Shown here piece by piece: positions 12,480-60,990 of a DNA stretch of 64,000 nt; position 1 is the stretch's first letter, and the number at the start of each line of letters is the position of its first letter. A program made the position numbers and the translations under genes. The notes below the pieces were generated by a model. The model saw nothing but the letters and a program-made list of their open reading frames with translations, did not search any database and was not told where the DNA came from. The stretch is from Acidobacteriota bacterium (GTDB taxonomy: Bacteria; Acidobacteriota; Aminicenantia; UBA2199), in assembly GCA_022711715.1 (NCBI GenBank), contig JAKLEC010000001.1:33500-97499 (forward strand). The letters are read 5' to 3'.

Positions 12480-12830
12480 TGGCTCATATTATAGTATAAA
12501 TCTGACATATAGCCAAATCTTGCAGGGGATATCCGAGCAATCGTGACGCGTGACGCGTAACGCGTGACGAGTAAACGCACAACCAGCTATCGTGATTCGT
12601 GATTCGTGATTCGGAACAGCATAGTTCGGCCATGCTGTTGCTAACACAAACACTAACACCAACACGTAGCGCCCGGCAATTACCTTCATGCTGACACTGA
12701 CACTGTCACTGACACTAATTTTTATTGAATGCCGTACGCCGAGGTCCGCGTCCTGTCTCTTGTCACGCGTCACGCGTTACGCGTCACGAAGATCGTGCAA
12801 CTATGATCGACACCCGGCCGTCTTATATGG
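12480..12830. repeat. Composite intergenic repeat cluster: (TGACGCG)n, (ATTCGTG)n, (AACACW)n, (CTGACAC)n modules
   Basis: Same module types recur at 14845-15060, 21395-21545, 23330-23430, 30489-30520, 41135-41230, 46940-47030, 60400-60500, in both orientations. Confidence 0.8.
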
Positions 12831-12858
12831 TACAGTATGCAAGGAACGACCCCTTCCC

Positions 12859-13794
12859 ATGTTGAAGCATATGCAGGCGAATGAGCGGATCCAGGGCGAT
12901 GACCGCGCCGTAGAGGGCAGGACCCGGCGGCGGATCGTCGTCCTCTCCGTCCTGCTGCACATGCTCCTGCTCGCCGCCTGGAACTCGGCGCTGGTGCTTG
13001 ACTGGGCGGCGCTGCTGCCGGTCGCCCCCGCCGTGCCGGCGAAGGCCGCGCCCCTGGTATTCGACCTGCAGCCGCCCGACCTTCCCCGCGAGGTGATCGC
13101 CACCCCGGACGACGCCCGCACCGCCAGGGCGCCGCGCGACGCCGATTTCCTCTCCGACAAAAACGCCCTGGCCCGCGACCAGGAGCCGGCGCCGGGACTG
13201 CCCGTGACCGGCGCCCCCTTCTCCCGCGGCGACCTGCCCAGCCACAGCATCCCCGTCCCGCCCCCCTCCCCCGAGCGGCGGGAACGGCCGGAGCCGGAGC
13301 GCCGCAGCCCCGAGACCGGCCGCGAGAGCGAAACCCCCGACCTGGACCTCGATCCCGCCGGCCAGGCCGCCCCTCCGGCCGGCAGGCCGGCCCAGCCCCC
13401 CGGCCGCCCCTTCCGCTTCGACCTGCCGGAGGCGCCGCACCGCCAGCTGGAGGGACGCGTCGGCGAGGAGGGCGGACTCTCGTTCAACACCTACGACTGG
13501 GACTTCGCCCCCTACATGCTGGCCCTGAAGCGGCGCATCGGCGGCAACATCTTCCCGCCCCTGGCCTACAGCATGCTGGGCATGATCGACGGCGACACGC
13601 GGCTGCGCTTCAAGATCTACCCCGACGGCCGCCTGGCCGACCTGGAGCTGCTGGGCTACAGCGGCCACCGCACCCTGATGGAGACCAGCCGCTCGGCCAT
13701 CACCGTCTCGGCCCCCTTTCCCGCCCTGCCGGCCGACTTCCCCAAGCCGTACCTGGAAGTGACCGCGCGCTTCACCTATTTCGTGCGACGCTAA
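12859..13794 (+). CDS. tonB: TonB family energy transducer (Pro-rich linker + TonB C-terminal domain)
   Basis: Start at MLKHMQ (12859). Upstream track residues are translated repeat. TM helix, PxPxP/EPEP-rich spacer, C-terminal TonB fold. Confidence 0.7.
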   Translation: MLKHMQANERIQGDDRAVEGRTRRRIVVLSVLLHMLLLAAWNSALVLDWAALLPVAPAVPAKAAPLVFDLQPPDLPREVIATPDDARTARAPRDADFLSDKNALARDQEPAPGLPVTGAPFSRGDLPSHSIPVPPPSPERRERPEPERRSPETGRESETPDLDLDPAGQAAPPAGRPAQPPGRPFRFDLPEAPHRQLEGRVGEEGGLSFNTYDWDFAPYMLALKRRIGGNIFPPLAYSMLGMIDGDTRLRFKIYPDGRLADLELLGYSGHRTLMETSRSAITVSAPFPALPADFPKPYLEVTARFTYFVRR

Positions 13795-13806
13795 GCGAGG
13801 AGCACC

Positions 13807-14436
13807 ATGAAGAACATCCTGGATTTCCTGGTCAAGGGCGGCATCATCATGATCCCCCTCTTCCTGTGCTCGGTCACCGCCCTGGCGGTGGTGATCGAGA
13901 AATCGGTCACGCTGCGCCGGCGGCGGATCATCGTCCCCGAGGTGGTCAGCGTGCTGGACAACGTCAAGGGAGCCGGCGACTTCGCCCTGGCGCTCGCCGT
14001 CTGCGAGAAGCACCGCGGCTCCTTCGCCAACATCGCCCGCCTGGCGCTGGAGAACCGCGCCCTGCCCCGCGAGGAGCTCAAGGAGTCGCTGGGCGACCAG
14101 GGGCGGCAGGAGGTGCACCGGCTGGGCCGCGGGCTGGGGGTGCTGGAGACGGTCGCCGGCATCGCCCCGCTGCTCGGGCTGCTGGGCACGGTGCTGGGCA
14201 TCCTGAAGGTCTTCAAGGTCATCGCGGTGATGGGCGTCGGCCAGGCGGCGGCGCTGGCCGGCGGCATCTCCGAGGCGCTCATCACCACCATCGCCGGCCT
14301 GTTCATCGGCATCCCGGCGCTGGTGGCCTACAACTACTACTCGGACCGGACCGAGTCGCTGGTCCTGGAGATGGAGAACCACTCCAACCGCCTGCTGAAC
14401 AAGATCCACGCCCTGCAGCCGGGCGCGGAGGGCTGA
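13807..14436 (+). CDS. exbB: MotA/TolQ/ExbB proton-channel protein
   Basis: Three TM helices. GLLGTVLGI and ISEALITTIAGL motifs. Confidence 0.85.
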   Translation: MKNILDFLVKGGIIMIPLFLCSVTALAVVIEKSVTLRRRRIIVPEVVSVLDNVKGAGDFALALAVCEKHRGSFANIARLALENRALPREELKESLGDQGRQEVHRLGRGLGVLETVAGIAPLLGLLGTVLGILKVFKVIAVMGVGQAAALAGGISEALITTIAGLFIGIPALVAYNYYSDRTESLVLEMENHSNRLLNKIHALQPGAEG

Positions 14437-14437
14437 G

Positions 14438-14839: not shown

Positions 14840-14844
14840 CCGAA

Positions 14845-15060
14845 CCAACAAGTCCTCCGTGACGCGTAACGCGTGACGCGTGACGCGTGAAGGCACATAG
14901 AGAGCAATAAAGAGTCGTTCCCATGGCATTCGCCATTCATCCGGAGGGAATCCCGGCAGGGGTTGGCTTTCTTTTGCGAGAATGCTTGCCACTTTGCATT
15001 TTCTCGTCACGCGTCACGCGTTACGCGTCACGATAGTCCGTTTCTTTGACACTGTCTTCC
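14845..15060. repeat. Composite intergenic repeat cluster ((TGACGCG)n in both orientations)
   Basis: CGTGACGCGTAACGCGTGACGCGTGACGCGTG at 14855 and the reverse-complement copy at 15003. Confidence 0.75.
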
Positions 15061-15104
15061 GGGGATGCTATCATGACACCGGGATTCCGGTCGCGAATCA
15101 CGAC

Positions 15105-15821
<717 letters not shown>

Positions 15822-15824
15822 GCC

Positions 15825-17787: not shown

Positions 17788-17803
17788 CGCCGGGAGGCCG
17801 CCC

Positions 17804-21209: not shown

Positions 21210-21560
21210 ACTCGGCGGACGACTAGGACAATCGCTTCCAGATGCTATAAGGTTCGACGTCCGAGGTTCGACGCTGCCGGCCCCGTCAGGGGCGGCGTCC
21301 CCGAGGAGCGATAGCTCCGAGTGGGATAAGACGTAACGAAGGCCAATTCGCTTGAGTGCTTAAGATTTCTAGTTAGTGGCTGATCGTTCTTGCTGACACT
21401 TTCACTGACACTGACACTTAGTCTTTGCTGTTGCTAACACAAACACGAACACGAACACGTAGCGCCAGGCAATCCCCTTCTTGCTGACACTGACACTGTC
21501 ACTGACACTGATATGTGGTCGCTGCTGTTTCTCGTCACTCGTCACTTGTCACTTGTTACT
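21210..21560. repeat. Composite repeat cluster: ~150-bp GC-rich hairpin element (family A, + orientation) followed by CTGACAC/AACACG/CACTYGT microsatellite modules
   Basis: 21245-21395 matches 46772-46915 at ~90%. Reverse-complement copies at 32850-32995 and 41250-41395. Confidence 0.85.
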
Positions 21561-21571
21561 GCAAACTCGGC

Positions 21572-23214: not shown

Positions 23215-23430
23215 GCACAGGCAGGGCGTGCTGGCAAATGAAACGAGCTTGCTGAACTTGGCGTACGGCATACGGCGCACGGCGTACGGCAGGAAACTTC
23301 CCGAGCTTTCGTGACGCTCCTGAAGATCCCCGATGGGGGGGGTAACGCGTGACGCGTGACGAGAAACCGCGACCAAATCGATCTATCGTGATTCGTAATT
23401 CGTGATTCGTGATTCGGAACAGCAATAGGT
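23215..23430. repeat. Composite repeat cluster (CGTACGCCGTATGCCG, (TGACGCG)n, (ATTCGTG)n modules)
   Basis: Module sharing with 10745-10810, 12541-12625, 40500-40850. Confidence 0.75.
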
Positions 23431-23474
23431 CGGCTCATGCAATTGCCGTGCGCCGGGAGGCACAAAGGTGTAAA

Positions 23475-26422: not shown

Positions 26423-27133
26423 TCACTTCTTCTTGATCGTACTGAGCACCTTCTCCTTGTCGATCTTCTTGGTGCAGAAGAACCAGTCGTGGCAGGTGAC
26501 GCCGGCTTCCTTGCCGTCCATCCTATCCTTGGCCACGCCGCAGGAGCCGGCGGTGGGCACGATGACGTCGTCGCCCGGGCGCCAGTCGGCCGGGGTGGCC
26601 ACGCCGAAGGCGTCGGCGGTCTGCAGCGCCTGCAGCACGCGCAGCAGCTCGTCAAAGTTGCGGCCCATGCTCAGCGGGTAGTAGATGATGGTGCGGATGA
26701 TCCCCTTGGGATCGATGAAGAAGACGGCGCGCACGGCCTTGGTCGAGCTCTCGCCCGGCTGCATCATGCCGTACGCCTTGGCCACGTTCATGGTGATGTC
26801 CTCGATCAGCGGGAACTTCACCTCGACGTTCTTCATCCCCTTGTACTCGATCTTGTCCTTGATGGTGCGCAGCCAGGCGATGTGGCTGTACAGGCCGTCG
26901 ACCGAAAGGCCGACCAGCTGGCAGTTCAGCTCGGTGAACTTGGCCTCCATGGAGGCGAAGGTCATGAACTCCGAGGTGCACACCGGGGTGAAGTCGGCCG
27001 GGTGGCTGAACAGGATGACCCATTTCCCCGCGTACTGCTCGGGAAAGTTGATCTCGCCCTGAGTGGTGACGGCCTTGAACGACGGGGCCTTGTCGCCGAT
27101 GCGGGGCATGCTGACGGTTGCGTTCTGTTCCAT
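26423..27133 (-). CDS. 1-Cys peroxiredoxin (Prx6/AhpC-TSA family), copy B
   Basis: Start MEQNATVSMPRIGD (ATG 27133). FTPVCTSE motif. Paralog of 6619-7338. 5 bp downstream of the Fur-family gene. Confidence 0.85.
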   Translation of the reverse strand: MEQNATVSMPRIGDKAPSFKAVTTQGEINFPEQYAGKWVILFSHPADFTPVCTSEFMTFASMEAKFTELNCQLVGLSVDGLYSHIAWLRTIKDKIEYKGMKNVEVKFPLIEDITMNVAKAYGMMQPGESSTKAVRAVFFIDPKGIIRTIIYYPLSMGRNFDELLRVLQALQTADAFGVATPADWRPGDDVIVPTAGSCGVAKDRMDGKEAGVTCHDWFFCTKKIDKEKVLSTIKKK

Positions 27134-29610: not shown

Positions 29611-29777
29611 GGCGTGATTGTAGTGATCCCCGCCCGCGATGTCAAAAAGTCCCTCGCCGCTGGAACAAGGCGGAACCCGCTGAAGCGGGCGCGGGTACAA
29701 GTCACGCGGAGAGGCGTTTCGCCATGGGGGCCCCCCATTTTCCCCCCAGCATGATATACTGTCCATTTGGAGGCCGA

Positions 29778-30488: not shown

Positions 30489-31140
30489 AGTGTTAGTGTT
30501 AGTGTTTGTGTTCGCAACGGCAAACGAACGAACTAAGCAGTATTGACAACTCATTGCCGTCCGAAATAAATCGTTTTTTATAGGAAATCAGTACTGCAAA
30601 TGGTTTTGGGGCTACCTCATACGGTTTTTATGGCTAGGTCGGCTGCTTGTAAGACTAAAATTCCAAGCACCAAGCAGCAAATTTCAAATAAATTCCAAGT
30701 TCCATCAAAGCCAGAAGCAAGTGTCAGTGTGAGTGTCAGTGTCAGCAAATCCAAACGGAAATGATGCTAAATTCTCGCTGTCACTGGCACTGTCACAGTG
30801 CTTTGTTTTGTTCATTTGGACATTGGTGTTTGGTGCTGATTTGGAATTTGGTGCTTGGAAATTGGTGCGTAAGTCCTCCCAGTTTCTAAAAGTTATTTTG
30901 GACAGATCTGTTGACAACTCTGTCCTGATCGAGTTCTCCATTATTCAGAATCCTGGCTTTCCTAACACGAACACTAACACGAACACAAACACAAAAGATT
31001 TGAGGTTCTGCGAGCAAGGGCGCCGTTCTTGCCGGGGCCGGGCGGGAGGCCCGGCTATATCTTTGGGTTTATTCGTCAAATTCTACCTTCAGGACTATTG
31101 TTTCATCCGCTTTTCAATTTTATAAGAAAATAACAAGCCT
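30489..31140. repeat. Composite intergenic repeat cluster (GTGTTAG, family-B element, TGTCAGTG, TGGAATTTGGTGCTTGG, AACACGAACAC modules)
   Basis: 30580-30680 (CTGCAAATGGTTTTGGGGCTACC...TAAGACTAAAATTCCAAGCACCAAG) recurs reverse-complemented at 39365-39465 and direct at 39170-39200. Confidence 0.8.
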
Positions 31141-32480: not shown

Positions 32481-33020
32481 CCGGAACAGGCTATCGCGAC
32501 ACGCGACAGGTAACAGCGATGGACGGATCCGTCGCGATTCGCATTTCGTGACGAAATCGGCAGACGGTTTACGGGGTACGGTTTACGGGAAAGCCATTCG
32601 GAGCTAACGCTCCTCGGGGACGCCGCCCCTGGCGGGGCCGGCGGCGTCGAACCTTGCTGCATCCGAAAAGTGTCAGTGACAGTGTCCGTGTCAGCAAGAA
32701 GGGAAAAGGGGTAGAGAGATAGAGTGGTAGAGGGGGAAAGCAAGAAACAGCCCGGGAGATTTCTTTGCATGGCCGCCACTTTTTCTCTTTCCCACTTTAC
32801 CTCTCTACCACTTTACCTCTCTAGCACTGAGCGTCCTGGCACAGCGAGCAAGAACGATCAGCCCCTAACTAGAAATCCTGAGCACCCAAGCGAATTGGCC
32901 TTCGTTACGTCGAATCCCACTCGGAGCTAACGCTCCTCGGGGACGCCGCCCCTGGCGGGGCCGGCGGCGTCGAACCTCGAACGTCGAACCTTAAAGCATC
33001 TTTAGTATTTCCTGATAGCG
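32481..33020. repeat. Composite repeat cluster with two reverse-orientation copies of the family-A hairpin element
   Basis: 32595-32655 (half element) and 32850-32995 (full). Also contains GTCAGTGACAGTG and GA-rich modules. Confidence 0.85.
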
Positions 33021-36079: not shown

Positions 36080-36700
36080 CGCACTGGGGTTCCACGTACC
36101 ACGTACCATGTTCCATGTTGAAGAGATTTCGGAAATCATCGGACGGCAAGGGAGAAGCTCAGGGAAGACAGAGGGAAGAATGAGGAAAGAGAGAGGGAAG
36201 AGAGAGTGGGAAAAGCCCTTTCTATGTGCTTGTGTCAGTGTTTGTGTTAGCGAAGGCAATCGGGCGAAACTAAAAAAAATGAAAGAGAATAAAAGCCTGC
36301 GCCTGGCGCAGTGACAAGCAGGATACCATGCGCAAGACAACCCCAAGCAAAGAACGCCGACAAGACAAACGGAGACCAGACCGCCGCGCCCAGGAGCGCA
36401 AAACAAATGGCCCCGCGCCGGGAGCCGTGCTTCTCTTCCCATTCAGCACCCTGCTGCTGGGTCCGCTGCTGGCCGGCGTCGAGCGGAAGCATCCTTCAGC
36501 TCGTCGAGCTCAGGGAAGATAGAGGGAAGAGAGAGAGAAGAGAAAGGGAAGAGAAGTGGGAAAAGTCCTTCCGAAAGTTCTTTCTCACTCTGTCTTCCCT
36601 CTGCCTTCCCTCTGTATTCCCTTTCTCTTCCCTGCAGTATCTTAGAGCTTGCGCTCCGGCGAGATTTTCCGCCCTGGCCGCTATTCATATAGTATAGGAA
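36080..36700. repeat. Composite repeat cluster with two GA/CT-rich inverted-repeat modules
   Basis: 36130-36240 and 36510-36640 related to 10585-10720. Also TGTCAGTGTTTGTGTTAG module. Confidence 0.8.
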
Positions 36701-38102: not shown

Positions 38103-38176
38103 AAGCGAGAGAGCCGGAAAAAGGCGACGCAGGCAGGCACGGCGCCTTCCTCTTCCTGGCTGGCCTTTGCCAGGTC

Positions 38177-38869: not shown

Positions 38870-39480
38870 CAGATTATATCGATACCCGTGAGCTCAGGGA
38901 AGAGCGAGGGAAGACCATGCTCGAGGAAGTCAGGGGCAAAGAGCCGATACGGATAAGGAACAAGTAAAAAGGTAAAAGGTAAGAGGAAGAGTTCGTTCCA
39001 ATTGCCCGCTGCTGCCACTGCCACAATGACCACCACAAAGATTCTGAAAGATCTTTTCCCACTCTCTTTTCCCTCTGGCTTCTCTGAGCTTCATTCAATT
39101 GCTGTTGCGAACACAAACACTAGCACCAGATCTATTCAAAATAACTTGCCAAGAGGCCTCGTGAAACTGGTAAGACTAAAGCTCCAAGTTCCAAGCACCA
39201 AATCCCAAATAAGCACCAAGCGCCAATGTCCAAATGGCCCAAACGAAGAGTAAACGCGCTCGATTATTGAATTACCGCCCAATTTTCCGGTGTAGGCACC
39301 CGATCGATTGAGCGCCCTGGTTTGGGTCATTGGAATTTGGGACTTGGAATTTGTTTGGAATTTGCTGCTTGGTGCTTGGAATTTTAGTCTTACGAGCACA
39401 TGCCCTAGCCATGAAAACCGTCTGGGGTAGCCCCAAAACCCTTTGCAGAACTGATTGTCTGTCAAAAAAACGAATATTTT
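38870..39480. repeat. Composite repeat cluster (GA-rich half-module, GTAAAAAGGTAAAAGG, family-B element in both orientations, TGGAATTTGG modules)
   Basis: 39170-39200 and 39365-39465 match 30580-30680. 38958-38985 matches 11713-11735. Confidence 0.8.
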
Positions 39481-39601
39481 GGACAGCAATGCACTAACCC
39501 AAACACATAGTGAAGCTTCTGCCGCTCTGCTTCATGCGAGATTTTCCCGGCCTGGCCATATTTATAACGCAGAGACAAACAAGCCATCCCAGGGGGAAAA
39601 C

Positions 39602-40359: not shown

Positions 40360-40860
40360 AGCAAAAAGGACGATCTCAGGGAAGAGAGAGGGAAAACAAA
40401 GGGAAAGGCAGAGGGAAGCCGGAGTGGGAAAGGATTCCTGACAGAGCCTTTCCCGCATGGACCGATCTGTTGCTTTTACGAACCACTAATCACTTCGCCC
40501 GTGCCCTACGCCGTCCACCGCAGGGCCTTTTCTTCCTTTTTCCTTTTTCCTTTTGCCCTTTGCCTTTCGCCTTCCTCTTCCCCTCCGCCGTACGCCGTCC
40601 GCCGTCAGCCGTATGCCTTATGCTATGCTGGGGTTTTCTCTTACTTTTGCCTTTTGCCCTTTGCCCTTTGCCTTTCGCCTTCCTCTCCCCTCCGCCGTAC
40701 GCCGCATGCCGTCAGCCGTATGCCTTATGCCATGCTTGGGTTTTCTCTTACTTTTGCCTTTTGCCTTTTGCCCTTTGCCTTTCGCCTTCCTCTTCCCCTC
40801 AGCCGTACGCCGTATGCCGTATGCCGTCAGCCGAGTCCTGATATTCATAAATAGTTCCTA
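40360..40860. repeat. Tandem array, ~3 copies of a ~108-bp unit (CCGTACGCCG...CTTTTGCCTTTTGCCCTTTGCCTTTCGCCTTCCTCTTCCCCTC), preceded by GA-rich half-module
   Basis: Units at ~40586-40690 and 40691-40799 with partial copies on each side. No unique spacers, so not CRISPR. Confidence 0.85.
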
Positions 40861-41109: not shown

Positions 41110-41400
41110 GGGCGGCGACGGTACTCGCTGTCCACAGTGTCAGTGACAGTGACAGTGTCAGCAAGAAACATCTCCGAACGCTACGCGTTAGTGTTTGTGT
41201 TTGTGTTAGCAACAGCATGAACCAATACTACGTGACAGTGCCAGTGCCAGCAAGAACGATCAGCACCTGACTAGAAATTCTAAGCACCCGAGCGAATTGG
41301 CCTTCGTTACGTCGAACCCCGCTCGGAGCTAGCGCTCCTCGGGGACGCCGCCCCTGGCGGGGCCGGCAGCGTCAAACGTCGGACGTCGAACCTTGTCGCC
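41110..41400. repeat. Composite repeat cluster with reverse-orientation family-A hairpin element
   Basis: 41250-41395 is the reverse complement of 21245-21395 (~90%). Also CAGTGACAGTGACAGTG and GTGTTTGTGTTAG modules. Confidence 0.85.
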
Positions 41401-42427
41401 CTTCTGGAATTCCTCTTTTCTTTATTCTTTGCAGTGAGAAAAGCCCTGCCGCCAGGAACAACAAGCCGAAGGCGACATAGGCGTCCGCGGCAAGGAACAG
41501 CACCAGGTGCGCGTAGACCCACATGCCCAGGATGTACGCCCACCACCAGCCGCGGAAGCGGATGACGCCGGCGACGATCAGCAGCACGGCGGTGAACCCG
41601 ACCAGCGCCGCCTGGGCGTCGCGGGTGGCCAGCAGCACCAGCAGCAGGTAAGCTGCCGCGAAGACTACCCACGGCCAGCGCCGGCGCCGGGCCAGGATCC
41701 TCCGCAGCGCCAGGTCGCAGGCGGCGACAAACCCCAGTCCGGCGATGAAGTTCAACCACCAGGGCGCGGCCGGCCGCCCCTCGGCCAGGCGCTTGACGTT
41801 GCGCATCATCTGCCGCTCCATGACGAAGTGGATGGTGTCGAAGGTCAGCGCCTGGCGAAGCAAGTCCCAGCGGCCCATGGGCGGGACGCGGCCGCGCAGC
41901 AGCAGCCGGGTGCGGCCGTCCGCCAGGGGGATGAAGTTGAAGCTGCCCCAGCCGCGCAGGACGAAATGTTTCGGTTTATCCAGCCGGGACACCGGCGGCG
42001 CCAGCCGGGGGGAGGGCTCCTGCCGGCGGAACAGTCCCAGCGGGTAGTCCTGGGGCGTCAGCAGCACCGGCATGCCCAGGCGCAGCTCCTGCCATTCCGG
42101 GCGAATGGACTCCGTATTGCGAATGTTGGCCAGGAAAAGGTTCTCCAGCCAGTGATAGCTATAGAAGCCGCCGCGGTCCTGGCCGATCTGCGCCTGCCAG
42201 GCCCAGGCCTGCTCGGGCGGTGCGTTGACGTCCAGGGCGCGGGTGGTCTGGTAGGCGTAGCCGGGAAGCTCCTCGTCGCCGGGGAAGACGGCGGCGCGCT
42301 CCTGCGGCGTCGAGCCCCAGTGCAGCAGCCAGGGTCGGCCCCAGGCGAAATAAAAGGAGATGACAGCGGCGAACACCAGCAAGAAAACCAGGGTCGACAG
42401 GGCCCGGCGTTTTTTTTCCATGCGCAT
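41372..42427 (-). CDS. Membrane protein with N-terminal SRPBCC-like region, hypothetical
   Basis: Start MRMEKKRR. N-terminal TM, soluble region, then 4-5 C-terminal TM helices. Family uncertain. Confidence 0.45.
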   Translation of the reverse strand: MRMEKKRRALSTLVFLLVFAAVISFYFAWGRPWLLHWGSTPQERAAVFPGDEELPGYAYQTTRALDVNAPPEQAWAWQAQIGQDRGGFYSYHWLENLFLANIRNTESIRPEWQELRLGMPVLLTPQDYPLGLFRRQEPSPRLAPPVSRLDKPKHFVLRGWGSFNFIPLADGRTRLLLRGRVPPMGRWDLLRQALTFDTIHFVMERQMMRNVKRLAEGRPAAPWWLNFIAGLGFVAACDLALRRILARRRRWPWVVFAAAYLLLVLLATRDAQAALVGFTAVLLIVAGVIRFRGWWWAYILGMWVYAHLVLFLAADAYVAFGLLFLAAGLFSLQRIKKRGIPEGRQGSTSDV

Positions 42428-46749: not shown

Positions 46750-47045
46750 ACAGGCAATAAGCTTGCAGATGCGATAAGGTTCGACGTTCGAGGTTCGACG
46801 CTGCCGGCCCCGTCAGGGGCGGCGTCCCCGAGGAGCGTTAGCTCCGAGTGGGATTCGACGCAACGAAGGCAAGTTCGCTTGGGTGCTTAAGATTTCTAGT
46901 TTGTGGCTGGTCGTTATTCTAAAAAGGTTAGGATCATTTGAAGGCCTTCTCGAATCACGAATTACGAATTACGAATCACGATAGCTCAAATTCGTGCAGT
47001 TGCTGACACAAACACTAACACGATCACGCAGATCTTCTGTTCGCT
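46750..47045. repeat. Composite repeat cluster: family-A hairpin element (+ orientation) plus (ATTCGTR)n and AACAC modules
   Basis: 46772-46915 matches 21245-21395. Confidence 0.85.
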
Positions 47046-48867: not shown

Positions 48868-49009
48868 GTGCTGCAGACGCGCCGGCCTCGGGTCCGCAAG
48901 GGGTTCACGGGTCCTGCATCGGGTGATCGGTTGGGGAGCGGGAACGGGCCTTTCCGTCAGGGCCATTATACACCAGGCGGCGGGGAATGTAAATCATCGC
49001 CTCCGGCAT

Positions 49010-50237
49010 GGGGACGGAGGATTAAAATTTGACTTTTTCCCTGCGAGGTAAAAAGTCAATATTTAAAGTTCCGTCCCCCAGCAGGCAGGAAGGCAGCCTG
49101 CTTGCCTGCGCTGTATGGCCACAAAACTGATGCGGAGGACCAGCGATACAATGCAGCACACAGGGATGGCTAGAGGATTTTCCCATACCATACAGATTGA
49201 TGGACGAAATTCTAATTTTTGACCTTTATATTTCCTCTCTTCTTTGCATTGCGGTACAGATGCCCCAGAGACTGGTGCTTCAAGTCAAAGAAGAAGGGGA
49301 TTTCGCCTATATCCGAATATTTCAGCCCGGCCAGGTCATGCAGCCAGACCAATAGCTCGCCCCGCAGTCTTTTGCCTGCGTGGGATGAGCGGTCGATCTG
49401 CTTCAGGCTGACCTGGTGCTTCCTTTCGAACTCATGGACCACCTTTTCAGCGGGCTCAAAGAATCGGTCCTCCGCGCGCTTCCTCTGTGCATCGGCGGGC
49501 GTTTTCCTGCGGTCGAACTTTTCCGCCGCCTTATCCGGGAAATCATCGCTCCCGATCACAGTCCCGAACCGAGTCCGAATGATCGGCAGCTCCGCATCGG
49601 CCGGATCGCGCAAGACGGCAGCCAGACCCTGGCGCGACTTGAAGAGGCCTTCAATGAGGTCAGTCGCCAGCCACTCGCTCCTTCTCCTGGAAAAATACGC
49701 GCCAGCGCTCGACCAGGGATAATCCGTCGATACTGCAGCCAGGCCCGCCCTGACCGGATTCAGGAGGACGTAACGGATTGCCAGTGTCAGGTATCCTTCA
49801 TCCTGGATCAGGGAGGAGTGAAAGCGGTTTTGGAACACGTATCCCTGGCTCGCCGTCTTCCTGCGATAATACATGCCGTACTGGCCGTTCAACTGCCGGA
49901 GAAAATGGGAAAGCCGGCCTGAGCGATTCTCGACCACCAGGTGATAGTGGTTGTCTATCAGGCAGAAGGCGAAAATGCGGATGCCGTTCAGTTTGGAATT
50001 CCTGGCCAGAAGTTCAAGAAAATGGCGTTTATCATTGTCACCCGCAAGGATCTTTTCCCCGTTGATCCCGCGGCTGGTGACATGGTGAAACGCTCCAGGG
50101 TAAGTCAGCCTGGGAAGCCGCATGGTTCGATCTTAGTTGAGGAGCGAAACGAATTCAATGGGGACGGAGGATTAATTTTTGTGTTTTTCGTGATTCGATA
50201 AAAAAGTCAAAAATTAAAGTTCCGTCCCCAAAAGGAG
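49010..50237. mobile_element. REP-associated tyrosine transposase (RAYT) unit flanked by two AT-rich ~75-nt palindromic hairpin elements in direct orientation (REPtron-like)
   Basis: GGGGACGGAGGATTAAAATTTGACTTTTT...AAAAAGTCAATATTTAAAGTTCCGTCCCC at 49010-49082. GGGGACGGAGGATTAATTTTT...AAAAAGTCAAAAATTAAAGTTCCGTCCCC at 50157-50237. Confidence 0.7.
49212..50123 (-). CDS. IS200-like Y1 (HUH) transposase, REP-associated (RAYT), with C-terminal DnaA-C-like HTH extension
   Basis: NHYHLVV HuH motif. Catalytic Tyr region YVLLNPVRAGL. C-terminal LHDLAGLKYSDIGEI...LGHLYRN resembles DnaA domain IV. Confidence 0.75.
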   Translation of the reverse strand: MRLPRLTYPGAFHHVTSRGINGEKILAGDNDKRHFLELLARNSKLNGIRIFAFCLIDNHYHLVVENRSGRLSHFLRQLNGQYGMYYRRKTASQGYVFQNRFHSSLIQDEGYLTLAIRYVLLNPVRAGLAAVSTDYPWSSAGAYFSRRRSEWLATDLIEGLFKSRQGLAAVLRDPADAELPIIRTRFGTVIGSDDFPDKAAEKFDRRKTPADAQRKRAEDRFFEPAEKVVHEFERKHQVSLKQIDRSSHAGKRLRGELLVWLHDLAGLKYSDIGEIPFFFDLKHQSLGHLYRNAKKRGNIKVKN

Positions 50238-50321
50238 CGGGGATTGTAAATCGCGGCGATTCCCCATAGAATAGGGCCTTGACCGATGCGGCCGGAACCA
50301 CCGGGCCCGGAGGAGCACACC

Positions 50322-54699: not shown

Positions 54700-54710
54700 A
54701 GGAGAAGCAG

Positions 54711-55010: not shown

Positions 55011-55019
55011 GGGAGCGCC

Positions 55020-57539
55020 TTGGCCGCGGTGCGCTTCGCCTTCCCCCTGGCCGGCGGCCTGCACGCCCGGCCGGCCAGCCTGCTCCGCGACGCCTGCCGC
55101 CCGTTTGCCGCCGCCGTCGTCTTCCGCAACCTGCGCAGCGGCAAACGCGCCGACGCCGCCAGCGTCCTGGAGCTGGTGGCCAGCGACACCGTCCGCAACG
55201 ATCCCTGCCTGCTGGAGGCGAGCGGCCCGCAGGAGCGCGAGGCCATGGCGGCGCTGCGCGCCTTCGTGGAGCGCGACCTGCCCGGCGCCGACGACGAGAC
55301 GCCGCCGGCCGGCAGCGCCGCCGGCGCCTCCTGGCTGCCGCCCGTCTTCGTCGCCGGCGGCGGCTCCCTGCTCCGCGGCCGTCCCCTGGCGCCGGGGGTG
55401 GGCCGGGGCCGCGTCCGCCGCCTGGCCGGGCGGGCTTCCTTCCCGAAGCGCTTCGCATCCGGCAGGCGCGACGCGGCGCAGGAACTGGAGTCGTTCCGCC
55501 GGGCCGCTGCCGAGGTCGAGGCCGCGCTGGCGGGATCGGCTGCGCGCGCCGCCGGGCCCGTCGCCGCCATCTTCAAGGCCCAGCAGGCCATCGCCGCCGA
55601 TCCGGCGTTCGCCGGCCGGGTGGCCGGCCTGATCGCCAAAGGCAGGCTGTCGGCGGGCGCGGCGATCGGGCAGGCCGCAGGCCATTACGCCGGCAAGCTG
55701 CGGCGCTCCTCCAGCGCCTACCTGCGGGAACGGGCCGACGACGTGTACGATATCGCCGCCCAGCTGGCGGAGAAGCTGTACGGCGCCGTGTCCCGACCGG
55801 CCGCGCCGGCTTCAGGTCCCTTCGTCGTTGCCGCCTCGTCCCTCTCCGCCTCCGAGCTGCCCGCCCTCCAGCGTCGCGGCCTGCGCGGGCTGATCCTCGG
55901 CGACGTCGGCGCGACCGCGCACGTCGCCATCCTGGCGCGCTCGCTGTCCATCCCCGCCGTCTCCGTCGATCCCGGCGCCCTGGCGCGCATCGTGGCCGGC
56001 GCCGAGGCGCTGGTTGACGGCCGGCGCGGCCTGGCGGTGATCGCCCCCGGCGCCGCCCTGAAGCGCTACTACCGCCTGGAGCAGGCGTCCGCCGCGGAGA
56101 TCCGGCGCCGGCGGAGCGCCTGGCGCCGGCTGCCGGGCCGGACACGCGACAAAAAACGCATCGAGATCGCGGCCAACGTCGGCCGGCCCGAGGAGCTGGC
56201 AACGGCCTGGGCCGCCGGCGCCCAGGGCATCGGCCTCTTCCGCAGCGAGTTCCTCTTCCTCGGCCGCCGGGAGCCGCCGGGCGAGGAGGAGCAGTTCGCG
56301 GCCTACACCCGGGCGACGCGGTCGGCCGGCGGCCGGCCGGTGATCGTCCGCACCCTCGATGTCGGCGGCGACAAGCCCCTCCCCTACCTGAAGCTGGCGC
56401 CTGAAGCCAATCCCTTCCTCGGCCGCCGCGCCGTGCGCTTCTACGCCGGGCATGCCGGCCTGGTGCGCTGCCAGCTGCGGGCCATGCTGCGCGCCGCCGG
56501 CCGCGGCCGGCTGAAGATCATGGTGCCGATGGTGACCGCGCCGGGAGAAGTGCGACTGGTGCGCGGGCTCCTGAAGGAGGCCGCCGCCGAGCTGCGAAGT
56601 CGCCGCGTTCCCCATGCCCGCTCCGTCGAGCTAGGGATCATGGTGGAGACGCCGGCGGCGGCGCTGGCCGTCGATTCCCTGGCGCGCGAGGCCGACTTCT
56701 TCAGCGTCGGCAGCAACGACCTGCTGCAGTACGTGATGGCCGTCGACCGCGGCAACCCGGCGCTGGCCGGGCTCTACGACCCGCTCCATCCCGCCTTCCT
56801 GCGCCTGCTGGCCGGCGCCGCCCGCCAGGCCCGCCGGGCGCGGCGCTGGCTGGGGCTCTGCGGGGAAATGGCGGGAAGCGCGGAGCTCCTGCCGCTCCTG
56901 GTCGGCATGGGCTTCGACGAGCTCAGCATGGCGCCGGGACTGATCCCCGGGACGAAGGAGCGGCTGGCCCGCCTGGACGCGGCCGCCTGCCGCCGGCTCC
57001 TGGGCCGCGCTCTGCGCTGCGGCGAGGCCGCCGCGGTACGGGCCTTGCTGCGGCAGTTCGCCGCCGCGGACGACGGCTCCGCCCGGCGCCAGGTCACCGC
57101 GGCCGGCCTGGTCCGCCTGGGCTCGCCCAGCCGCAGCGCCGCCGAGGCGATCCGCGAGCTGTGCGCCATGCTGGAGCTCGACGGCCGCGTGGGCGACGCC
57201 CTGGCGCTGGAAGAGGCGGCGTGGAGGCGCGAGGAGTCCTATGCCACCGACCTGGGGCTGGGTTTCGCCCTGCCCCATGCCAAGTCGCCGGCCGTGCGCG
57301 AGGCGGCGGTCGCCTTCCTGCGGCCGTCCCGCCCCTTCCGCTGGGCCGCGGGATCGCGAACACCGGTGCGTGGCGTGCTGCTGATCGCCGTTCCGGAGGG
57401 CGGAGGCGAGGAGCACCTGCGCCTTATCGCCGGGTTGTCGCGCCGGCTGGTGCACGAGGAGTTCCGCCGCGCCCTGCTCTCCGCCCGCACCGTTGCCGCC
57501 GCCCTGGCCGCCCTGCGCTCGGGGCTGGGGAGCGGATGA
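55020..57539 (+). CDS. PTS multiphosphoryl transfer protein (HPr domain - Enzyme I - EIIA-Fru/Ntr type), FryA-like
   Basis: N-terminal GLHARPAS HPr His. Central GDVGATAHVAILAR EI His and CGEMAG. C-terminal EIIA GLGFALPHAKS. Confidence 0.8.
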   Translation: MAAVRFAFPLAGGLHARPASLLRDACRPFAAAVVFRNLRSGKRADAASVLELVASDTVRNDPCLLEASGPQEREAMAALRAFVERDLPGADDETPPAGSAAGASWLPPVFVAGGGSLLRGRPLAPGVGRGRVRRLAGRASFPKRFASGRRDAAQELESFRRAAAEVEAALAGSAARAAGPVAAIFKAQQAIAADPAFAGRVAGLIAKGRLSAGAAIGQAAGHYAGKLRRSSSAYLRERADDVYDIAAQLAEKLYGAVSRPAAPASGPFVVAASSLSASELPALQRRGLRGLILGDVGATAHVAILARSLSIPAVSVDPGALARIVAGAEALVDGRRGLAVIAPGAALKRYYRLEQASAAEIRRRRSAWRRLPGRTRDKKRIEIAANVGRPEELATAWAAGAQGIGLFRSEFLFLGRREPPGEEEQFAAYTRATRSAGGRPVIVRTLDVGGDKPLPYLKLAPEANPFLGRRAVRFYAGHAGLVRCQLRAMLRAAGRGRLKIMVPMVTAPGEVRLVRGLLKEAAAELRSRRVPHARSVELGIMVETPAAALAVDSLAREADFFSVGSNDLLQYVMAVDRGNPALAGLYDPLHPAFLRLLAGAARQARRARRWLGLCGEMAGSAELLPLLVGMGFDELSMAPGLIPGTKERLARLDAAACRRLLGRALRCGEAAAVRALLRQFAAADDGSARRQVTAAGLVRLGSPSRSAAEAIRELCAMLELDGRVGDALALEEAAWRREESYATDLGLGFALPHAKSPAVREAAVAFLRPSRPFRWAAGSRTPVRGVLLIAVPEGGGEEHLRLIAGLSRRLVHEEFRRALLSARTVAAALAALRSGLGSG

Positions 57540-57586
57540 GTTGCATGTCCGCCGCCGGGCGCCTATAATCGGGGCGGAACGAAGCC

Positions 57587-58800: not shown

Positions 58801-58990
58801 GCCAGCTCGCTGCCGGTCAGAACGAACAGGGCTTCAAGGTTCGGCGTTCGAAGTTCGACGTTCGACGTAACGAAGGCCAATTCGCTCGGATGCTTTTTAC
58901 GATCTCCAAGCAGGTTCTGATCTCTGTTTCAGACAATGGGTGTCTAGTAAAGAAAAGCGATTGCTTTTGCATTTTTGCAATCCGTCCCCA
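58801..58990. repeat. Partial family-A element (arm without central hairpin)
   Basis: AAGGTTCGGCGTTCGAAGTTCGACGTTCGACGTAACGAAGGCCAATTCGCTCGGATGC. Confidence 0.7.
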
Positions 58991-59059
58991 AGCGCCGAAT
59001 ATCCTTGATTTTGCCCCCGTGGGCAGGTAAGCTGGCAGCCAGCGAAGCGGCCGTTCAGA

Positions 59060-60352
59060 ATGAATACGACGGGTGACCCTGCCAGCAAGATATCCACCAG
59101 GGAAAGGCTCTGGAACCAAAGCTTTTTCATCCTGTGGCAGGGCCAGCTGGTCTCGGCCTTCGGCGACGTCATCTATGCCATTGCCCTGGGCTTCTGGATC
59201 CTGGCCCAGACAGGCTCAACGGCGCTCATGGGCGCCTTGCTGGCGGCCGCTTCTTTGCCACGGGTGCTGGTTTCTCCCTTCGCCGGCGTGCTGATCGACC
59301 GCAGCGACCGCAAGCGCCTCCTGATCCTGACGGACACGATCCGGGGCATTGCCGTGGCCCTGGTCGGAGTGGCCGCGCTGCTGGGCTTCGCGCGAACGTG
59401 GATGCTGTTTGCGGCCGCCATCGTGATCGGCCTGGGGGGCGCGTTCTTCAATCCGGCCGTGGCTAGCGCACTTCCCGACATGGTCCGCCGCGACAGGCTC
59501 GTGCAGGCCAATTCGCTCTTTCACATGATCTATACCCTGTCGGGCCTGGCGGGCAACTCCGTTGGGGGCTTCCTGTTCAAGATTCTTGGGGCTCCGGTCA
59601 TGTTCTTCATCAACGGGCTCTCCTATCTTTTTTCGGCCCTGGTCATCCCGTTCATAAGGATCCCTAGGGTCGAGGCGCGGGTGGAGCGTTCCCCTTTCCT
59701 TTCCGACCTGAAGGAAGGCTTCGCCTTTATCTGGCGCTTCATCGGCCTGCGCCACCTGCTGGCGTTCGCCGCCATCATGAATTTCTTCGCTTCCATGGGC
59801 GTCATGCTGATCCTGCCGCTCTTCGAGCACCAGCGCCACCTGGGCCCCGTCCTCTACGGCCTGGTCATGGCCTGCTTCACCGGCGGTCTCCTGGCCGGCC
59901 TGCTCTTTTCGTCCATCGTGCGCATCCGGCCCGCCAGCCGCTTCAGGCTCTTCGCCGCTTGCGGCTTGATCTCCTCGCTCAGCATGATCCTCTTTCCCCT
60001 TTCCCTGCACTTCCCGTTGATGGCGCTGCTGGCCTTCGCGGGCGGGGCGGCTTCAGCGCTCCTCAACATGTTCATGACCAGCGTCATCCAGCTCACCGTG
60101 ACCCAAGAGATGCGCGGCAAGGTGTTCGGCATCCTGGGCGGCATCAGCACGGGCCTCATGCCCCTGGCCCTGGTCACGGGCGGCGTGCTGGCTGAGTTCA
60201 TCCCTATCCGCATCCTGATCTCGGCCAGCTTCGCGTTCACGATCCTGCTGTACTTGCCCCTTTTCGCAAGCGCCGCCTTCCGCCGCACCATCACCTTCGA
60301 TCCTGACACCCAGGCCGCGGCAGACCTCATCGCCTTCGGTGCGAAAACCTGA
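59060..60352 (+). CDS. MFS transporter
   Basis: 430 aa, 12 TM. DRSDRKR motif A-like loop between TM2-3. Confidence 0.8.
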   Translation: MNTTGDPASKISTRERLWNQSFFILWQGQLVSAFGDVIYAIALGFWILAQTGSTALMGALLAAASLPRVLVSPFAGVLIDRSDRKRLLILTDTIRGIAVALVGVAALLGFARTWMLFAAAIVIGLGGAFFNPAVASALPDMVRRDRLVQANSLFHMIYTLSGLAGNSVGGFLFKILGAPVMFFINGLSYLFSALVIPFIRIPRVEARVERSPFLSDLKEGFAFIWRFIGLRHLLAFAAIMNFFASMGVMLILPLFEHQRHLGPVLYGLVMACFTGGLLAGLLFSSIVRIRPASRFRLFAACGLISSLSMILFPLSLHFPLMALLAFAGGAASALLNMFMTSVIQLTVTQEMRGKVFGILGGISTGLMPLALVTGGVLAEFIPIRILISASFAFTILLYLPLFASAAFRRTITFDPDTQAAADLIAFGAKT

Positions 60353-60354
60353 TC

Positions 60355-60990
60355 GTCAACACTGAAGAATCGCCCAATAATACAAGAAACTCAACGAACT
60401 CTGCGTGTTAGTGTTCGTGTTCGTGTTAGCAACAGCATGAGCCGACCTATTGCCGTTCTGAATCACGAATTACGAATCACGACAGATTCTTTTTTCCTTG
60501 TCAGTGCCAGCAAGAACGCTCAGCCCCTGACTAGAAATCTTGAGCACCCAAGCGAATTGGCTCTTGTTACGTCGAACCTCGAACGTTGAACCTTACAGTT
60601 CTTATAGGTTTTTCCCCGCCCTATGCCGCCAAGTGCCTTTCAACGTGGCACGTGGTACATGGTACGTGGCACCTTGAAAGTCCGGCGTACTTTTAGTTGC
60701 TGAATAGCATGGAGTACTACTTCTCTGCCTCTGCGCCCTGTGCCGCCGAGTGCCCTTCAACGTGGCACGTGGTACATGGGATGCCACTCGGGAGGAACCC
60801 TCGGGGACGCCGCCCCTGTCGGGGTCGGCAGCGTGGTACCTAGATGGACCGTCGTACTTCTAGTTGCTGAATAGCATGGAGTACTACTTCTCCGCCCCTG
60901 CGCCCTACACCAGGCGCCGAGTTCTATCGCTGTTCCTCGTCACTTGGCACTCGTCACTCAGCCTTTGAGCTCCTGGAAGGACCCCCCAGA
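60355..60990. repeat. Composite repeat cluster: GTGTTAG/ATTCGTR modules, partial reverse family-A element, isolated family-A central hairpin, and ~170-bp tandem duplication
   Basis: 60670-60790 duplicated at 60845-60920 (GTACTTTTAGTTGCTGAATAGCATGGAGTACTACTTCTC...). 60795-60840 carries the GGGGACGCCGCCCCTGTCGGGGTCGGCAGCG hairpin. Confidence 0.8.

Follow-up and report, generated by a model that had tools for sequence, protein, structure and literature searches.

Fixed four-unit arrays, foldbacks and a double-hairpin cassette form a lineage-specific repeat mosaic in the intergenic spacers of an Aminicenantia bacterium

What builds the spacers of a bacterial genome in which most of the longer gaps between genes are put together from the same few short sequence modules? 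The question arises from a 64,000-nt stretch of DNA, hereafter the window, of an Acidobacteriota bacterium (Aminicenantia; UBA2199; assembly GCA_022711715.1, contig JAKLEC010000001.1, positions 33,500-97,499), for which an initial annotation had described a dense mosaic of modular intergenic repeats. The gene complement of the window is ordinary (typA, a GH38 mannosidase with a phosphotransferase system (PTS) operon, lactate permease, a major facilitator superfamily transporter, a sigma-54 activator, peroxiredoxins and others), its G+C content is ~65% with several 1-kb segments dipping to 53-57%, and the codon-bias gene map assigns 81.6% of it to coding and 18.4% to non-coding DNA. Comparison with related loci showed that the spacers of this lineage hold a real, genome-wide and lineage-specific repeat system with an unusual grammar, of which the features most worth attention are the precise gain and loss of a double-hairpin cassette, named A2, and the uniform blocks of four 6- or 7-nt units.

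Tandem Repeats Finder (TRF), with units of 6-7 nt, at least 3 copies and at least 80% matches, reported 40 tandem arrays in the window, 38 of them intergenic, against 0-5 arrays, mostly 1, in each of 20 block-shuffles of the same DNA. Self-BLAST resolved ~17 clusters in 15-16 spacers, the spans of which add up to 5,062 nt and so take up 7.9% of the window, or ~43% of the part that does not code; the self-BLAST coverage itself was 5,850 nt, and once ~1,980 nt of paralogous genes (peroxiredoxin, PTS enzyme I) are set aside, ~3.9 kb (6%) remain. The first estimate of ~10% of the window was right in order of size and slightly high, and the count of at least 13 clusters agrees with the presence of modules in 13 of the 17 gaps of at least 200 bp within 12480-60990. 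The mosaic does occupy that interval, to which it had been assigned, but it starts earlier and ends later, with three further sites at 10583-10830, 11705-11850 and 62072-62097.

The description of a mosaic of intergenic modules in both orientations was borne out by TRF, self-BLAST and the shuffles, and all the units that had been named were found at several sites each and on both strands. They are TGACGCG/CGTGACG (12542, 12762, 14858, 15005, 23345), ATTCGTG/TCGTGAT (12590, 23386, 46951, 60460), AACACW (12643, 21436, 30489, 30964, 39100, 41187, 47010, 60404), TGGAATT/TGGTGCT (30646-30870, 39167-39396), GTAAAAAGGTAAAAGG (11722, 38964) and CTGACA(C), for which CTGACACTGACACTG gave 20 matches at up to 2 mismatches where 0.09 were expected. 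The GA/CT-rich inverted repeats are also real (10583-10716, 36156-36637, 38890-39090, 40371-40454). The pseudo-peptides PYAVRRMPYA and VSRHASRVT were found exactly, at 23260-23289(-) and 23341-23367(-), as was LTLTLSLTL at 12691-12717(+) and 21484-21510(+); they are N-terminal over-extensions of mechanically listed open reading frames (ORFs), and the advice not to annotate such translations as protein stands. The window gave no Rfam match at the gathering score and no tRNA or tmRNA gene, and at E values up to 1 Rfam yielded only weak, sub-threshold matches of microRNA-hairpin models on the GA/CT foldbacks. A literature search with the exact array sequences returned no match, and no paper describing these sequences was found within an incomplete coverage of the literature.

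The statistics of the arrays were obtained from 28 non-redundant loci (~260 kb), the lineage loci sampled in total amounting to ~400 kb, a fraction of a genome; genes in the window and in these loci were called with our own crude codon-bias predictor, based on G+C at third codon positions (GC3). The 162 intergenic arrays belong to 46 canonical unit types (121 heptamers and 41 hexamers), many of which have a CAC(G/T) core in common, and they measure 27.6 +/- 3.9 nt with a copy number of 4.08 +/- 0.56 (n=162). The histogram of copy numbers places 108 of the 162 at 4-4.5, 11 at 3 and 12 at 5 or above; since slippage with a threshold of 3 should give a peak at that threshold, the peak at about four indicates that the arrays were not made by slippage. 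Moreover, the CGTCACG array carries the same internal variant (CGTCACG CGTCACG CGTTACG CGTCACG) at many dispersed loci, and its flanks are constant across many of them (..tttct / array / ATAGTYCG..). The recurrence of the CGTTACG variant and of the flanks at dispersed loci shows the arrays to be copies of master sequences. Most of the modules are such fixed blocks, ~28 nt long, with about four 6- or 7-nt units between short conserved flanks and copied by descent; the term microsatellites first applied to them has to be given up.

Larger combinations recur as well: an 85-nt block of TCGTGAT array, hairpin and AACAC array (12587-12669 and 60485-60401, 87%), an 87-nt AACAC-linker-CTGACA block (12633-12719 and 21426-21512, 92%), a 277-nt composite (21236-21510 and 41409-41135, 83%) and a ~340-nt foldback (30552-30886 and 39491-39163, 72%). 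The blocks have also been recombined. Compared with 12590-12665, the TCGTGAT array at 46951-47031 has the reverse orientation with respect to the AACAC array, and the two copies of the ~340-nt foldback differ in the centre, one of them holding an inner CTGACA hairpin. The free combinatorial shuffling at first attributed to the modules was found in part: several travel as fixed blocks, but others are independent, as seen in the presence or absence of A2, in the inversion of TCGTGAT arrays against AACAC arrays and in the comparison of orthologous spacers. The ~150-bp GC-rich family A exists as four full copies of ~155 nt (87-93% identity) plus partial copies, and is itself a composite of (GGTTCGACG..)n, then A2, then TTCGACGTAACGAAGGCCAATTCGC...GATCGTTCTTGC. 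The ~100-bp family B, by contrast, could not be assigned to one element, the candidates being a 107-bp tandem repeat at 40531-40827, a ~117-bp local duplication at 60617-60906 and the 3' half of family A.

The A2 cassette is 52 nt long, CTGCCGGCCCCGYCAGGGGCGGCG-T-CCCCGAGG[stem-loop-stem]CCGAGTGGG, and forms two hairpins. With a covariance model the window yielded exactly six copies and no other match below E = 0.1, and the sampled loci contained 39 distinct flanked copies, all intergenic; outside family A the cassette is embedded in (GTTCCAC/GTACCAC)n arrays or stands in head-to-tail tandems. Among 32 distinct cores, 96.4% of the cells were paired against 47-54% with slid partners, five pairs showed changes on both sides (21 cells), and in four of the five measures none of 500 shuffles came up to the observed values. 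The sequence of hairpin 1 hardly varies and the internal GA/GA loop is invariant in 32 of 32, the tandem G.A loop existing on one strand only, while hairpin 2 occurs as GGAGC/GCTCC, GGAAC/GTTCC, GGAGT/ACTCC, GGGGC/GCCCC, GGGG/CCCC, GGAGG/CCTCC and GGGA/TCCC. The second stem has changed in sequence many times with the pairing kept. A strand-specific G.U excess, considered as evidence for an RNA, proved uninformative (6 G.U cells against 9 A.C, bar one conserved U.G pair). The cassette was also rejected as an intrinsic terminator because it lacks a U-run after the hairpin: it is followed by GGGATTCGACG or a similar sequence and was not reported by a terminator scan of 10-30 kb. A2 had no viral match.

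Outside the head-to-tail tandems, all A2 copies with few exceptions have the left flank GGTTC[C/G]ACG, and the site of the cassette is one fixed position of (GTTCGAC)n or (GTTCCAC)n arrays. Exactly where four other family-A copies carry the cassette, the sites at 58839-58880 and 60570-60595 are empty and read uninterrupted ..GTTCGACGTTCGACGTAACG... Two pairs of orthologous spacers, L032/L070 (95% flanks) and L067/L077 (90%), contain one A2 each; within the same hairpin region of heptamer arrays it occupies different arms and is oppositely oriented, and the other possible site is exactly empty (GGTTCCAC^GTTCC.. / GGTTCCAC^ATACCAC). An inversion was rejected as the cause of the opposite orientation, given that loops and spacers keep theirs. 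In both comparisons, among copies of the host element and among orthologous spacers, the cassette is precisely there or precisely missing.

At L049 5929-6087 (x3), L043 1052-1157 and L012 852-957, A2 copies follow one another head to tail in twos or threes with a 53-nt period; since neighbouring copies differ in the sequence of hairpin 2, a simple recent duplication does not account for these tandems.

Some arrays form inverted pairs with arms of 30-67 nt and 74-96% complementarity, and in six regions of the window the foldbacks folded better than shuffles by z -4.6 to -7.1. Terminal inverted repeats bound short non-coding elements, in the manner of miniature inverted-repeat transposable elements (MITEs) and foldback elements, at 12541-12789, 14858-15032, 39167-39396 and 30489-30992. 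Pairs of the CGTGACG...CGTCACG type are outward-facing in 17 of 18 cases and form the outermost modules in the window, where the CGTCACG arms lie 60-100 nt upstream of starts and outside promoter-like sites; the sigma70-like promoters 13-25 nt beyond these arms (15046-15074, 12807-12836 and 12516-12488(-)) and the terminator-like site in the loop of the 14858-15032 foldback are consensus matches only. The flanks of the CGTCACG-bounded units are not duplicated. The region 21230-21570, with family A and its arrays, folds no better than shuffles (z +0.44), and the reading of family A plus arrays as one structured RNA was rejected for this, and the accessible part of a paper on intrastrand triplexes (PMC4666352) offered no evident relation to the GA/CT foldbacks.

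The commonest context of the arrays is the convergent spacer, between the 3' ends of both genes (62 of the 130 arrays for which both neighbouring genes were called). Of 31 A2 cases, 17 fall in convergent spacers, and in 16 of these 17 the cassette is nearer to, and in the sense of, the co-oriented stop codon, mostly at ~20-120 nt, a count that includes one case corrected for a gene missed by the predictor and some orthologous copies. This sense placement by stop codons is suggestive.

That the repeats might be confined to the window, or arise from its assembly, had been named as the outcome that would overturn the description; the same modules occur on other contigs, in another metagenome-assembled genome (MAG) and in metagenomes. 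An identical TypA (the query being the true 605-aa product) was found on contig JAEAMF010000795.1 (L054; assembly GCA_016294905.1), which aligns to window positions 36773-58867 at 99.7-99.9% and shares six clusters over ~22 kb, with three single-nucleotide polymorphisms inside clusters. At this divergence of 0.3% no array had changed in length over the ~22 kb, bar 40531-40827; the difference of ~52 nt in the 107-bp tandem repeat region (40531-40833) is the sole repeat-length difference seen and may be due to assembly collapse. In a scan of GTDB species representatives the A2 core appeared on at least 14 contigs of the MAG DAHVOV01, labelled Candidatus Aminicenantes, which carry most other modules of the window at ~80-100% identity but have no genes orthologous to those of the window. 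A2 was also present on six further JAEAMF01 contigs and in five other metagenome sources including activated sludge, none overlapping the window, and each metagenome contig with A2 had additional module clusters kilobases from the match. The array density per 10 kb was 6.25 in the window, 1.5-30 in lineage loci, a range biased upward since it was the presence of A2 that led to most of these loci, and 0-2.5 in unrelated high-GC loci.

The limits of the system are narrow. A TOLCLC contig with 89% TypA identity (L055) has two module regions in 22 kb, and relatives with 86, 79 and 76% TypA identity (L059, L060 and L061) have compact spacers without modules in small samples of ~20 kb each, showing a restriction to a narrow clade. 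Inside this clade the orthologous spacers L038 and L068 (92% flanks) have only a CCGTAYA-type array in common, one consisting of GTTCCAC arms, A2, an ACGGTAG hairpin and an ACTATC array and the other of family A without A2, a GGTAGAGA-type foldback and an AACAC array. In the pair L039/L074 (94% flanks) the TCGTGAT-hairpin-AACAC block is kept and the arm number, the loop sizes and A2 differ. The boundary between typA and the transporter gene measures 14 bp in the 86% relative and contains 300 bp of modules in the window, and the typA region of the 89% relative has other genes and a different mosaic. The module content of the spacers turns over far faster than the flanking genes, and the idea that the mosaics mark recombination hotspots fits the very different content of orthologous spacers.

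The array (CGTCACG)3 was also found in 7 IMG/VR contigs, in some cases immediately preceding a Shine-Dalgarno sequence and ATG; arrays of three to four units occupy such a position at L078 757-800 and 1490-1532, L083 4988-5035 and L084 4819-4865. Two composition-matched permuted heptamer arrays gave 8 and 1 IMG/VR matches, and other window units 3 and 12. A phage link of the CGTCACG arrays was rejected as a background of heptamer arrays, the permuted controls being similarly frequent, and heptamer arrays before phage genes may represent a general, unexplained feature rather than a link to the lineage.

One candidate enzyme is encoded in the window, a Y1 (HUH) transposase-like gene at 49212-50123 (-) that resembles the tyrosine transposases associated with repetitive extragenic palindromes (REPs), known as RAYTs (PF01797, 2.7e-07; NF047646, 69.5 bits, below the 80-bit cut-off). 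It is accompanied by ~70-nt palindromes of its own (z about -6.7), and a comparison with L055, L059 and L060 shows the whole cassette to be inserted upstream of typA. About 20 nt, CGATTTACAWTCCCCG, stand on both sides of it (48981-49000 and 50236-50256), including a TTTACA -35-like box upstream of a conserved TATAAT. A paralogue of 62% identity, located on another JAEAMF01 contig (L085), is flanked by inverted copies of a related motif. The flanking palindrome, GGGGWCGG...TTAA with an AT-rich centre, occurs only beside these two RAYT-like genes in the ~400 kb sampled and bears no resemblance to A2 or the arrays, and the mosaic is for this reason not attributed to RAYT-like enzymes; a RAYT as the mobiliser of A2 or of the arrays was rejected on the same ground. 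A search by tblastn with the RAYT-like protein over the sampled loci returned only itself, and a PDB sequence search with it returned nothing. No transposase gene with module-type ends was present in the window or in the lineage loci, and none other than the RAYT-like genes was seen in this fraction of the genome.

At L055 11840-13740 (also in L056-L058) at least 8 classical GTAG REP-like hairpins, GTAGGGGCRGRCCCC..., surround a 196-aa RAYT-like gene. They were discarded as an origin of the mosaic, this REP type being absent from the window and the other loci, and that absence indicates that sister lineages carry different REP systems.

The comparison with known repeats places the mosaic closest in architecture to the mosaics of REPs and bacterial interspersed mosaic elements (BIMEs), and its arrays closest to intergenic heptamer repeats. 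BIMEs combine short GC-rich extragenic palindromes with other motifs in mosaic clusters, mostly at gene 3' ends and in convergent spacers, and the short tandemly repeated repetitive (STRR) sequences of cyanobacteria are intergenic heptamer arrays. A2 is a short, GC-rich extragenic palindrome in many copies, as a REP is. With REPs, BIMEs and the REPINs (REP doublets forming hairpins) of Pseudomonas (PMC3116915), the mosaic shares high-copy GC-rich palindromes, clustering, 3' ends, both orientations, lineage specificity and signs of spread within the genome. It differs in having no GTAG, in the two-hairpin form of A2, single or head-to-tail, and in the lack of sequence similarity; unlike in BIMEs, most of its modules are blocks of four 6-7-nt units and the RAYT-like genes of the lineage are flanked by unrelated palindromes. 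Membership in the REP/RAYT family fails for cognate flanking REPs, for the GTAG motif and for inverted doublets. The likening to BIME and to enterobacterial repetitive intergenic consensus (ERIC) elements in the initial annotation can be kept as an analogy to BIME architecture, but not as membership in BIME/REP or ERIC, and the view that such mosaics are rarely described outside enterobacteria and pseudomonads went too far. Heptamer arrays between genes have been described from cyanobacteria, Beggiatoaceae, Burkholderia, Xanthomonas and others, and TAACTGA repeats from Beggiatoaceae, Cyanobacteria and Bacteroidetes (PMC4679880); for the TAACTGA repeats and the heptamer repeats of Nostoc a platform for nucleic-acid-binding proteins has been proposed (PMC4679880; bioRxiv 10.1101/2022.06.06.494920).

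The arrays resemble these in their tandem 7-nt units of 2-6 copies, strongly intergenic position, several families per genome and patchy distribution. They are unlike them in having at least 46 unit types and a narrow size of ~4 units, in serving in some cases as inverted hairpin arms, in being chained with hairpin cassettes and in existing as dispersed copies with fixed internal variants. They also lie mostly beside gene 3' ends, in contrast to the TAACTGA repeats of 5' untranslated regions a few nt upstream of start codons, and have a constant, peaked size, in contrast to contingency-type simple sequence repeats (SSRs), whose unit number varies between close strains. Foldback (FB) elements of Drosophila have inverted termini built of short tandem repeats, and, as far as the accessible part of the source describes it, a minisatellite-bearing MITE exists in Porphyromonas (PMC4596501). 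The mosaic is like MITEs and foldback elements in being non-coding, with inverted-repeat arms, some of short tandem units, and nested insertions; it is unlike them in that no target-site duplication was seen, no related autonomous element was found and many arrays stand without an inverted partner. The palindrome-associated transposable elements (PATEs) derived from IS200/IS605 insert by single-strand 'peel and paste' 3' of a short target. A2 is like PATEs in carrying hairpins at both ends and a constant left flank at a fixed short target, and in having neither terminal inverted repeats nor a detectable duplication, but it is only 52 nt long, its hairpins abut the ends instead of being subterminal with guide sequences, and no matching TnpA was found. 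We class the system as a variant of intergenic repeats already known from bacteria, new in its fixed four-unit blocks, nested foldbacks and precisely gained or lost cassette.

The explanation we favour, with belief and doubt in about equal parts, is that the modules belong to the REP/MITE/foldback kind of DNA elements, non-autonomous and either mobile or recombining. Short, non-coding, dispersed modules would have colonised the spacers, stacking beside and inside one another; they may propagate as single-stranded hairpins with an enzyme supplied in trans, and a preferential insertion into existing repeats would produce the clustering and nesting of the mosaic. They would persist mainly in gene 3'-flanking and convergent spacers, where insertion should be least harmful, and the stable hairpins there would probably join transcript 3' ends, as barriers or stabilisers like REP/BIME elements. 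A functional layer alongside mobility is plausible, with hairpins as barriers or stabilisers of transcript ends and arrays as multivalent protein-binding platforms. Several points weigh against this explanation. No transposase or recombinase could be linked to any module, and both RAYT-like genes have palindromes of their own, unlike A2 or the arrays. No target-site duplication was found, and the A2 target repeat makes a 7-nt duplication indistinguishable from none; the A2 differences could also be explained by gene conversion between arms or by differential precise loss. A strict inverted partner within 600 nt exists for 29 of the 162 arrays (a direct partner for 22), so that foldback arms explain a minority and many arrays are unpaired 'beads' separated by 12-30-nt linkers and small hairpins, and the densities at lineage loci carry the upward bias already mentioned. 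The narrow range of array sizes, the unvarying GA/GA loop and the sense placement of A2 by stop codons look like selection for function and not like pure parasitism. These last features lead to the rival view, which overlaps the mobile-element explanation rather than excluding it and which we hold to be possible but rather doubtful, that the modules are primarily functional cis-elements, the ~28-nt arrays binding an oligomeric or multi-domain protein and A2 and the foldbacks being modular transcript-end structures for the termination, insulation or stabilisation of mRNAs, with mobility secondary. It would account for the peak at ~4 units across 46 types, for the CAC(G/T) core, for the compensatory changes that keep the A2 hairpins and their one-strand loop, for the position of A2 after stop codons and for CGTCACG arms that end just upstream of sigma70-like -35 boxes (15046, 12807, 12516(-)), one pair bracketing a terminator-like site; heptamer repeats, moreover, affect expression in Nostoc reporter constructs (bioRxiv 10.1101/2022.06.06.494920). 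Dozens of unit sequences nevertheless argue against one sequence-specific reader, orthologous spacers with 90-95% flanks differ in modules and show no positional conservation, and the relatives with 76-86% TypA identity manage without modules, so that no conserved gene needs them. The orientation of arrays to genes is explained by the symmetry of inverted pairs, and A2 has neither a U-tract, nor a hit in the terminator scan, nor an Rfam match.

A self-organising two-tier system not yet described in bacteria, in which four-unit blocks would serve as standardised landing pads or arms, A2-like cassettes would be inserted and excised seamlessly and at specific sites by a single-strand recombinase and hairpin stacks would be co-opted as transcript-end or insulator elements, is a bolder proposal that we consider unlikely. 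That a REP/REPIN system is driven by the RAYT-like transposase of the window, with A2 and/or the arrays as its substrates, is very unlikely. The gene is there, its homologues are named RayT by the Joint Genome Institute (JGI) and a paralogue exists in the same assembly (JAEAMF01); A2 has GC-rich hairpins, no detectable duplication and the fixed left flank GGTTCSACG. GC-rich hairpins without duplication are the general look of REP-type elements handled single-stranded by HUH enzymes. Against this stand the NF047646 score below its cut-off, the different, AT-rich-centred palindrome carried by both genes and found only beside them, the single or head-to-tail A2 without GTAG in place of inverted REP doublets, and the absence from the window of the classical GTAG REPs of L055. 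Two further explanations are poorly supported. In-place polymerase slippage, which would make the arrays ordinary long simple-sequence repeats without mobility or function, draws on heptanucleotide repeats being the commonest long SSR class in many bacteria (Mrazek 2007, as cited in PMC4679880) and on permuted heptamer arrays being about as common in IMG/VR as those of the window; it is highly improbable in view of a copy number peaked at ~4 and not decaying from the threshold, of identical internal variants and flanks at dispersed loci, of multi-module blocks of 85-340 nt that recur, and of arrays that are intergenic in 38 of 40 cases and of the same length in near-identical assemblies. An artefact or chimera of the metagenome contig, suggested by the metagenome-assembly sources and by the length difference at 40531-40827, has a probability close to nil: two assemblies agree at 99.7% over ~22 kb including six clusters, the same modules come from independent projects, and the clusters sit exactly between well-formed genes.

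Table 1. Repeat features of the window and the RAYT-like cassette (window coordinates; z, folding energy relative to shuffles)
Position	Strand	Feature	Components and folding
10583..10716	.	GA-rich/CT-rich foldback	arms (AGGGAAGAGAG)n 10588-10639, (CTCTCTTCCCT)n 10666-10711; fold -76.8 kcal/mol, z -7.07
10786..10815	+	(CCGTACG)4 array	TRF
11705..11850	.	foldback	arms (AAGGTAAA/GTAAAAG)n 11708-11744, (CTTTTAC)n 11817-11848; z -5.60
12541..12789	.	composite with outward-facing arms	(CGTGACG)4 12541-12574 / (CGTCACG)4 12759-12789; inside, TCGTGAT array 12590-12613, small hairpin 12614-12640, AACAC array 12643-12665, CTGACA array 12691-12716; sigma70-like promoters immediately outside both arms; fold z -4.60 (12535-12795)
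14858..15032	.	foldback	(CGTGACG)4.7 + (CGTCACG)4 arms, 38 nt, 89% complementary; terminator-like site in loop 14949-14964; then promoter-like TTGACA-17-TATCAT 15046-15074
21234..21560	+	family A with arrays	family A 21234-21394 incl. A2 21274-21325; CTGACA, AACAC, CTGACA arrays 21393-21511; (CTCGTCA)n array 21531-21560
23260..23446	.	array group	(GGCGTAC)4.4, (ACGCGTG)2.4, (TCGTGAT)4.4 arrays + small hairpin; source of PYAVRRMPYA, VSRHASRVT
30489..30992	.	three-level nested foldback	outer arms (AGTGTT)4 30489-30512 / (AACACG)4.8 30964-30992; middle arms AATTCCAAGCACC-type 30646-30699 / TTGGTGC-TTGGAAT 30820-30870; inner arms (AGTGTC)4.3 30720-30745 / CTGTCACTGGCAC 30778-30795; fold -165 kcal/mol, z -5.80
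32593..33001	-	solo A2, foldback, family A	solo A2 32593-32644; AGTGTC array 32669-32694; GGTAGAGA/CCACTTTACCTCTCTA foldback 32694-32828, z -5.21, second copy in L075 (97%); family A 32847-33001 with A2 32916-32967
36089..36637	.	arrays and GA/CT foldback	(GTTCCAC/GTACCAC)4.4 array 36089-36119; GA-rich arm 36156-36222; GTGTC/GTGTT arrays ~36230-36250; GA/CT foldback 36505-36637, z -4.65
38885..39500	.	GA/CT arms, array, foldback	GA-rich arm, GTAAAAAGGTAAAAGG, CT-rich arm (38890-39090); AACAC array 39100-39128; foldback with 67-nt arms 39167-39233 / 39330-39396, homologous to 30552-30886, inverted
40371..40833	.	foldback and tandem repeat	GA-rich foldback 40371-40454; 107-bp unit x2.8 at 40531-40827, unit = (CTTTTGC)5 + CT-rich linker + (GCCGTAY)5
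41111..41409	-	second copy of 277-nt composite	family A with A2 41318-41369; GTGCCA, GTTTGT, ACAGTG arrays
46761..47031	+	family A with arrays	A2 46801-46852; inverted (CGAATCA)4.4 array 46951-46981; AACAC array 47010-47031; between convergent lactate permease and typA genes
49010..50229	-	RAYT-like Y1 transposase cassette	gene 49212-50123; own ~70-nt palindromes 49010-49078, 50160-50229; separate from mosaic
58839..58922	+	family A fragment	uninterrupted (GTTCGAC)4.3 array = empty A2 site
60383..60959	.	arrays, partial family A, local duplication	CGTGTT array, hairpin, GAATCAC array; family-A 3' half without A2 60503-60595; ~117-nt local duplication with ACGTGGC/ACGTGGT arrays + one A2 (60783-60831, -); (CTCGTCA)n array 60936-60959
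62072..62097	+	(TTTTTCC)3.6 array	beside 3' end of D-Ala-D-Ala ligase-like gene

Some further features of the window lie outside the repeat system. A promoter-like motif, CGAGATTTTCC(C)GCCCTGGCC followed by an A/T-rich TATA(G/A)T-like box, is common to 36645-36700 and 39535-39575, where it directly follows two mosaics and precedes two genes of unknown function, and may be a promoter or operator of the lineage. A lower G+C content (0.53-0.60) with atypical codon usage marks 27760-29766, 49212-50123, 60994-61551, 30-31 kb and 39-40 kb; the genes at the first three of these positions were missed by the GC3-based gene finder, one low-G+C gene encodes a 668-aa MORN-repeat/choloylglycine-hydrolase-like protein, and these genes and spacers may have been acquired horizontally. 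Two 1-Cys/AhpC-type peroxiredoxin genes 20 kb apart (6623-7305 and 26427-27109) have 92% nucleotide identity over 683 bp and are the product of a recent gene duplication or conversion. An older pair of paralogues, with 74-91% in patches, is formed by the PTS enzyme I-like genes (19992-20908 and 55879-56798). A 225-bp segment, 38106-38330, is missing from L054 (junction 20485/20486), which is otherwise 99-99.9% identical. It includes the 3' end of a UbiE-type methyltransferase gene, whose product has 228 aa in the window and 216 aa in L054, where the gene overlaps its neighbour; the cause is a deletion or else a misassembly in one of the two contigs.

The repeats have practical consequences, in that they seed false ORF extensions and fragment metagenome assemblies, most of the retrieved DAHVOV01 contigs ending in or near them, and they offer markers that resolve strains. 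The arrays add a well-defined data set to the long-standing question of the role of intergenic heptamer arrays in bacteria, and A2 provides a clean, testable case of seamless insertion into, and excision from, a repeat target with no known enzyme. If the explanation by mobile or recombining elements is true, about 40% of the non-coding DNA of the lineage would have been built by a repeat system of unusual grammar; should the two-tier proposal prove true, mobile, structured 3'-flank cassettes that have a target repeat of their own would form a new class, in a phylum without a cultured model.

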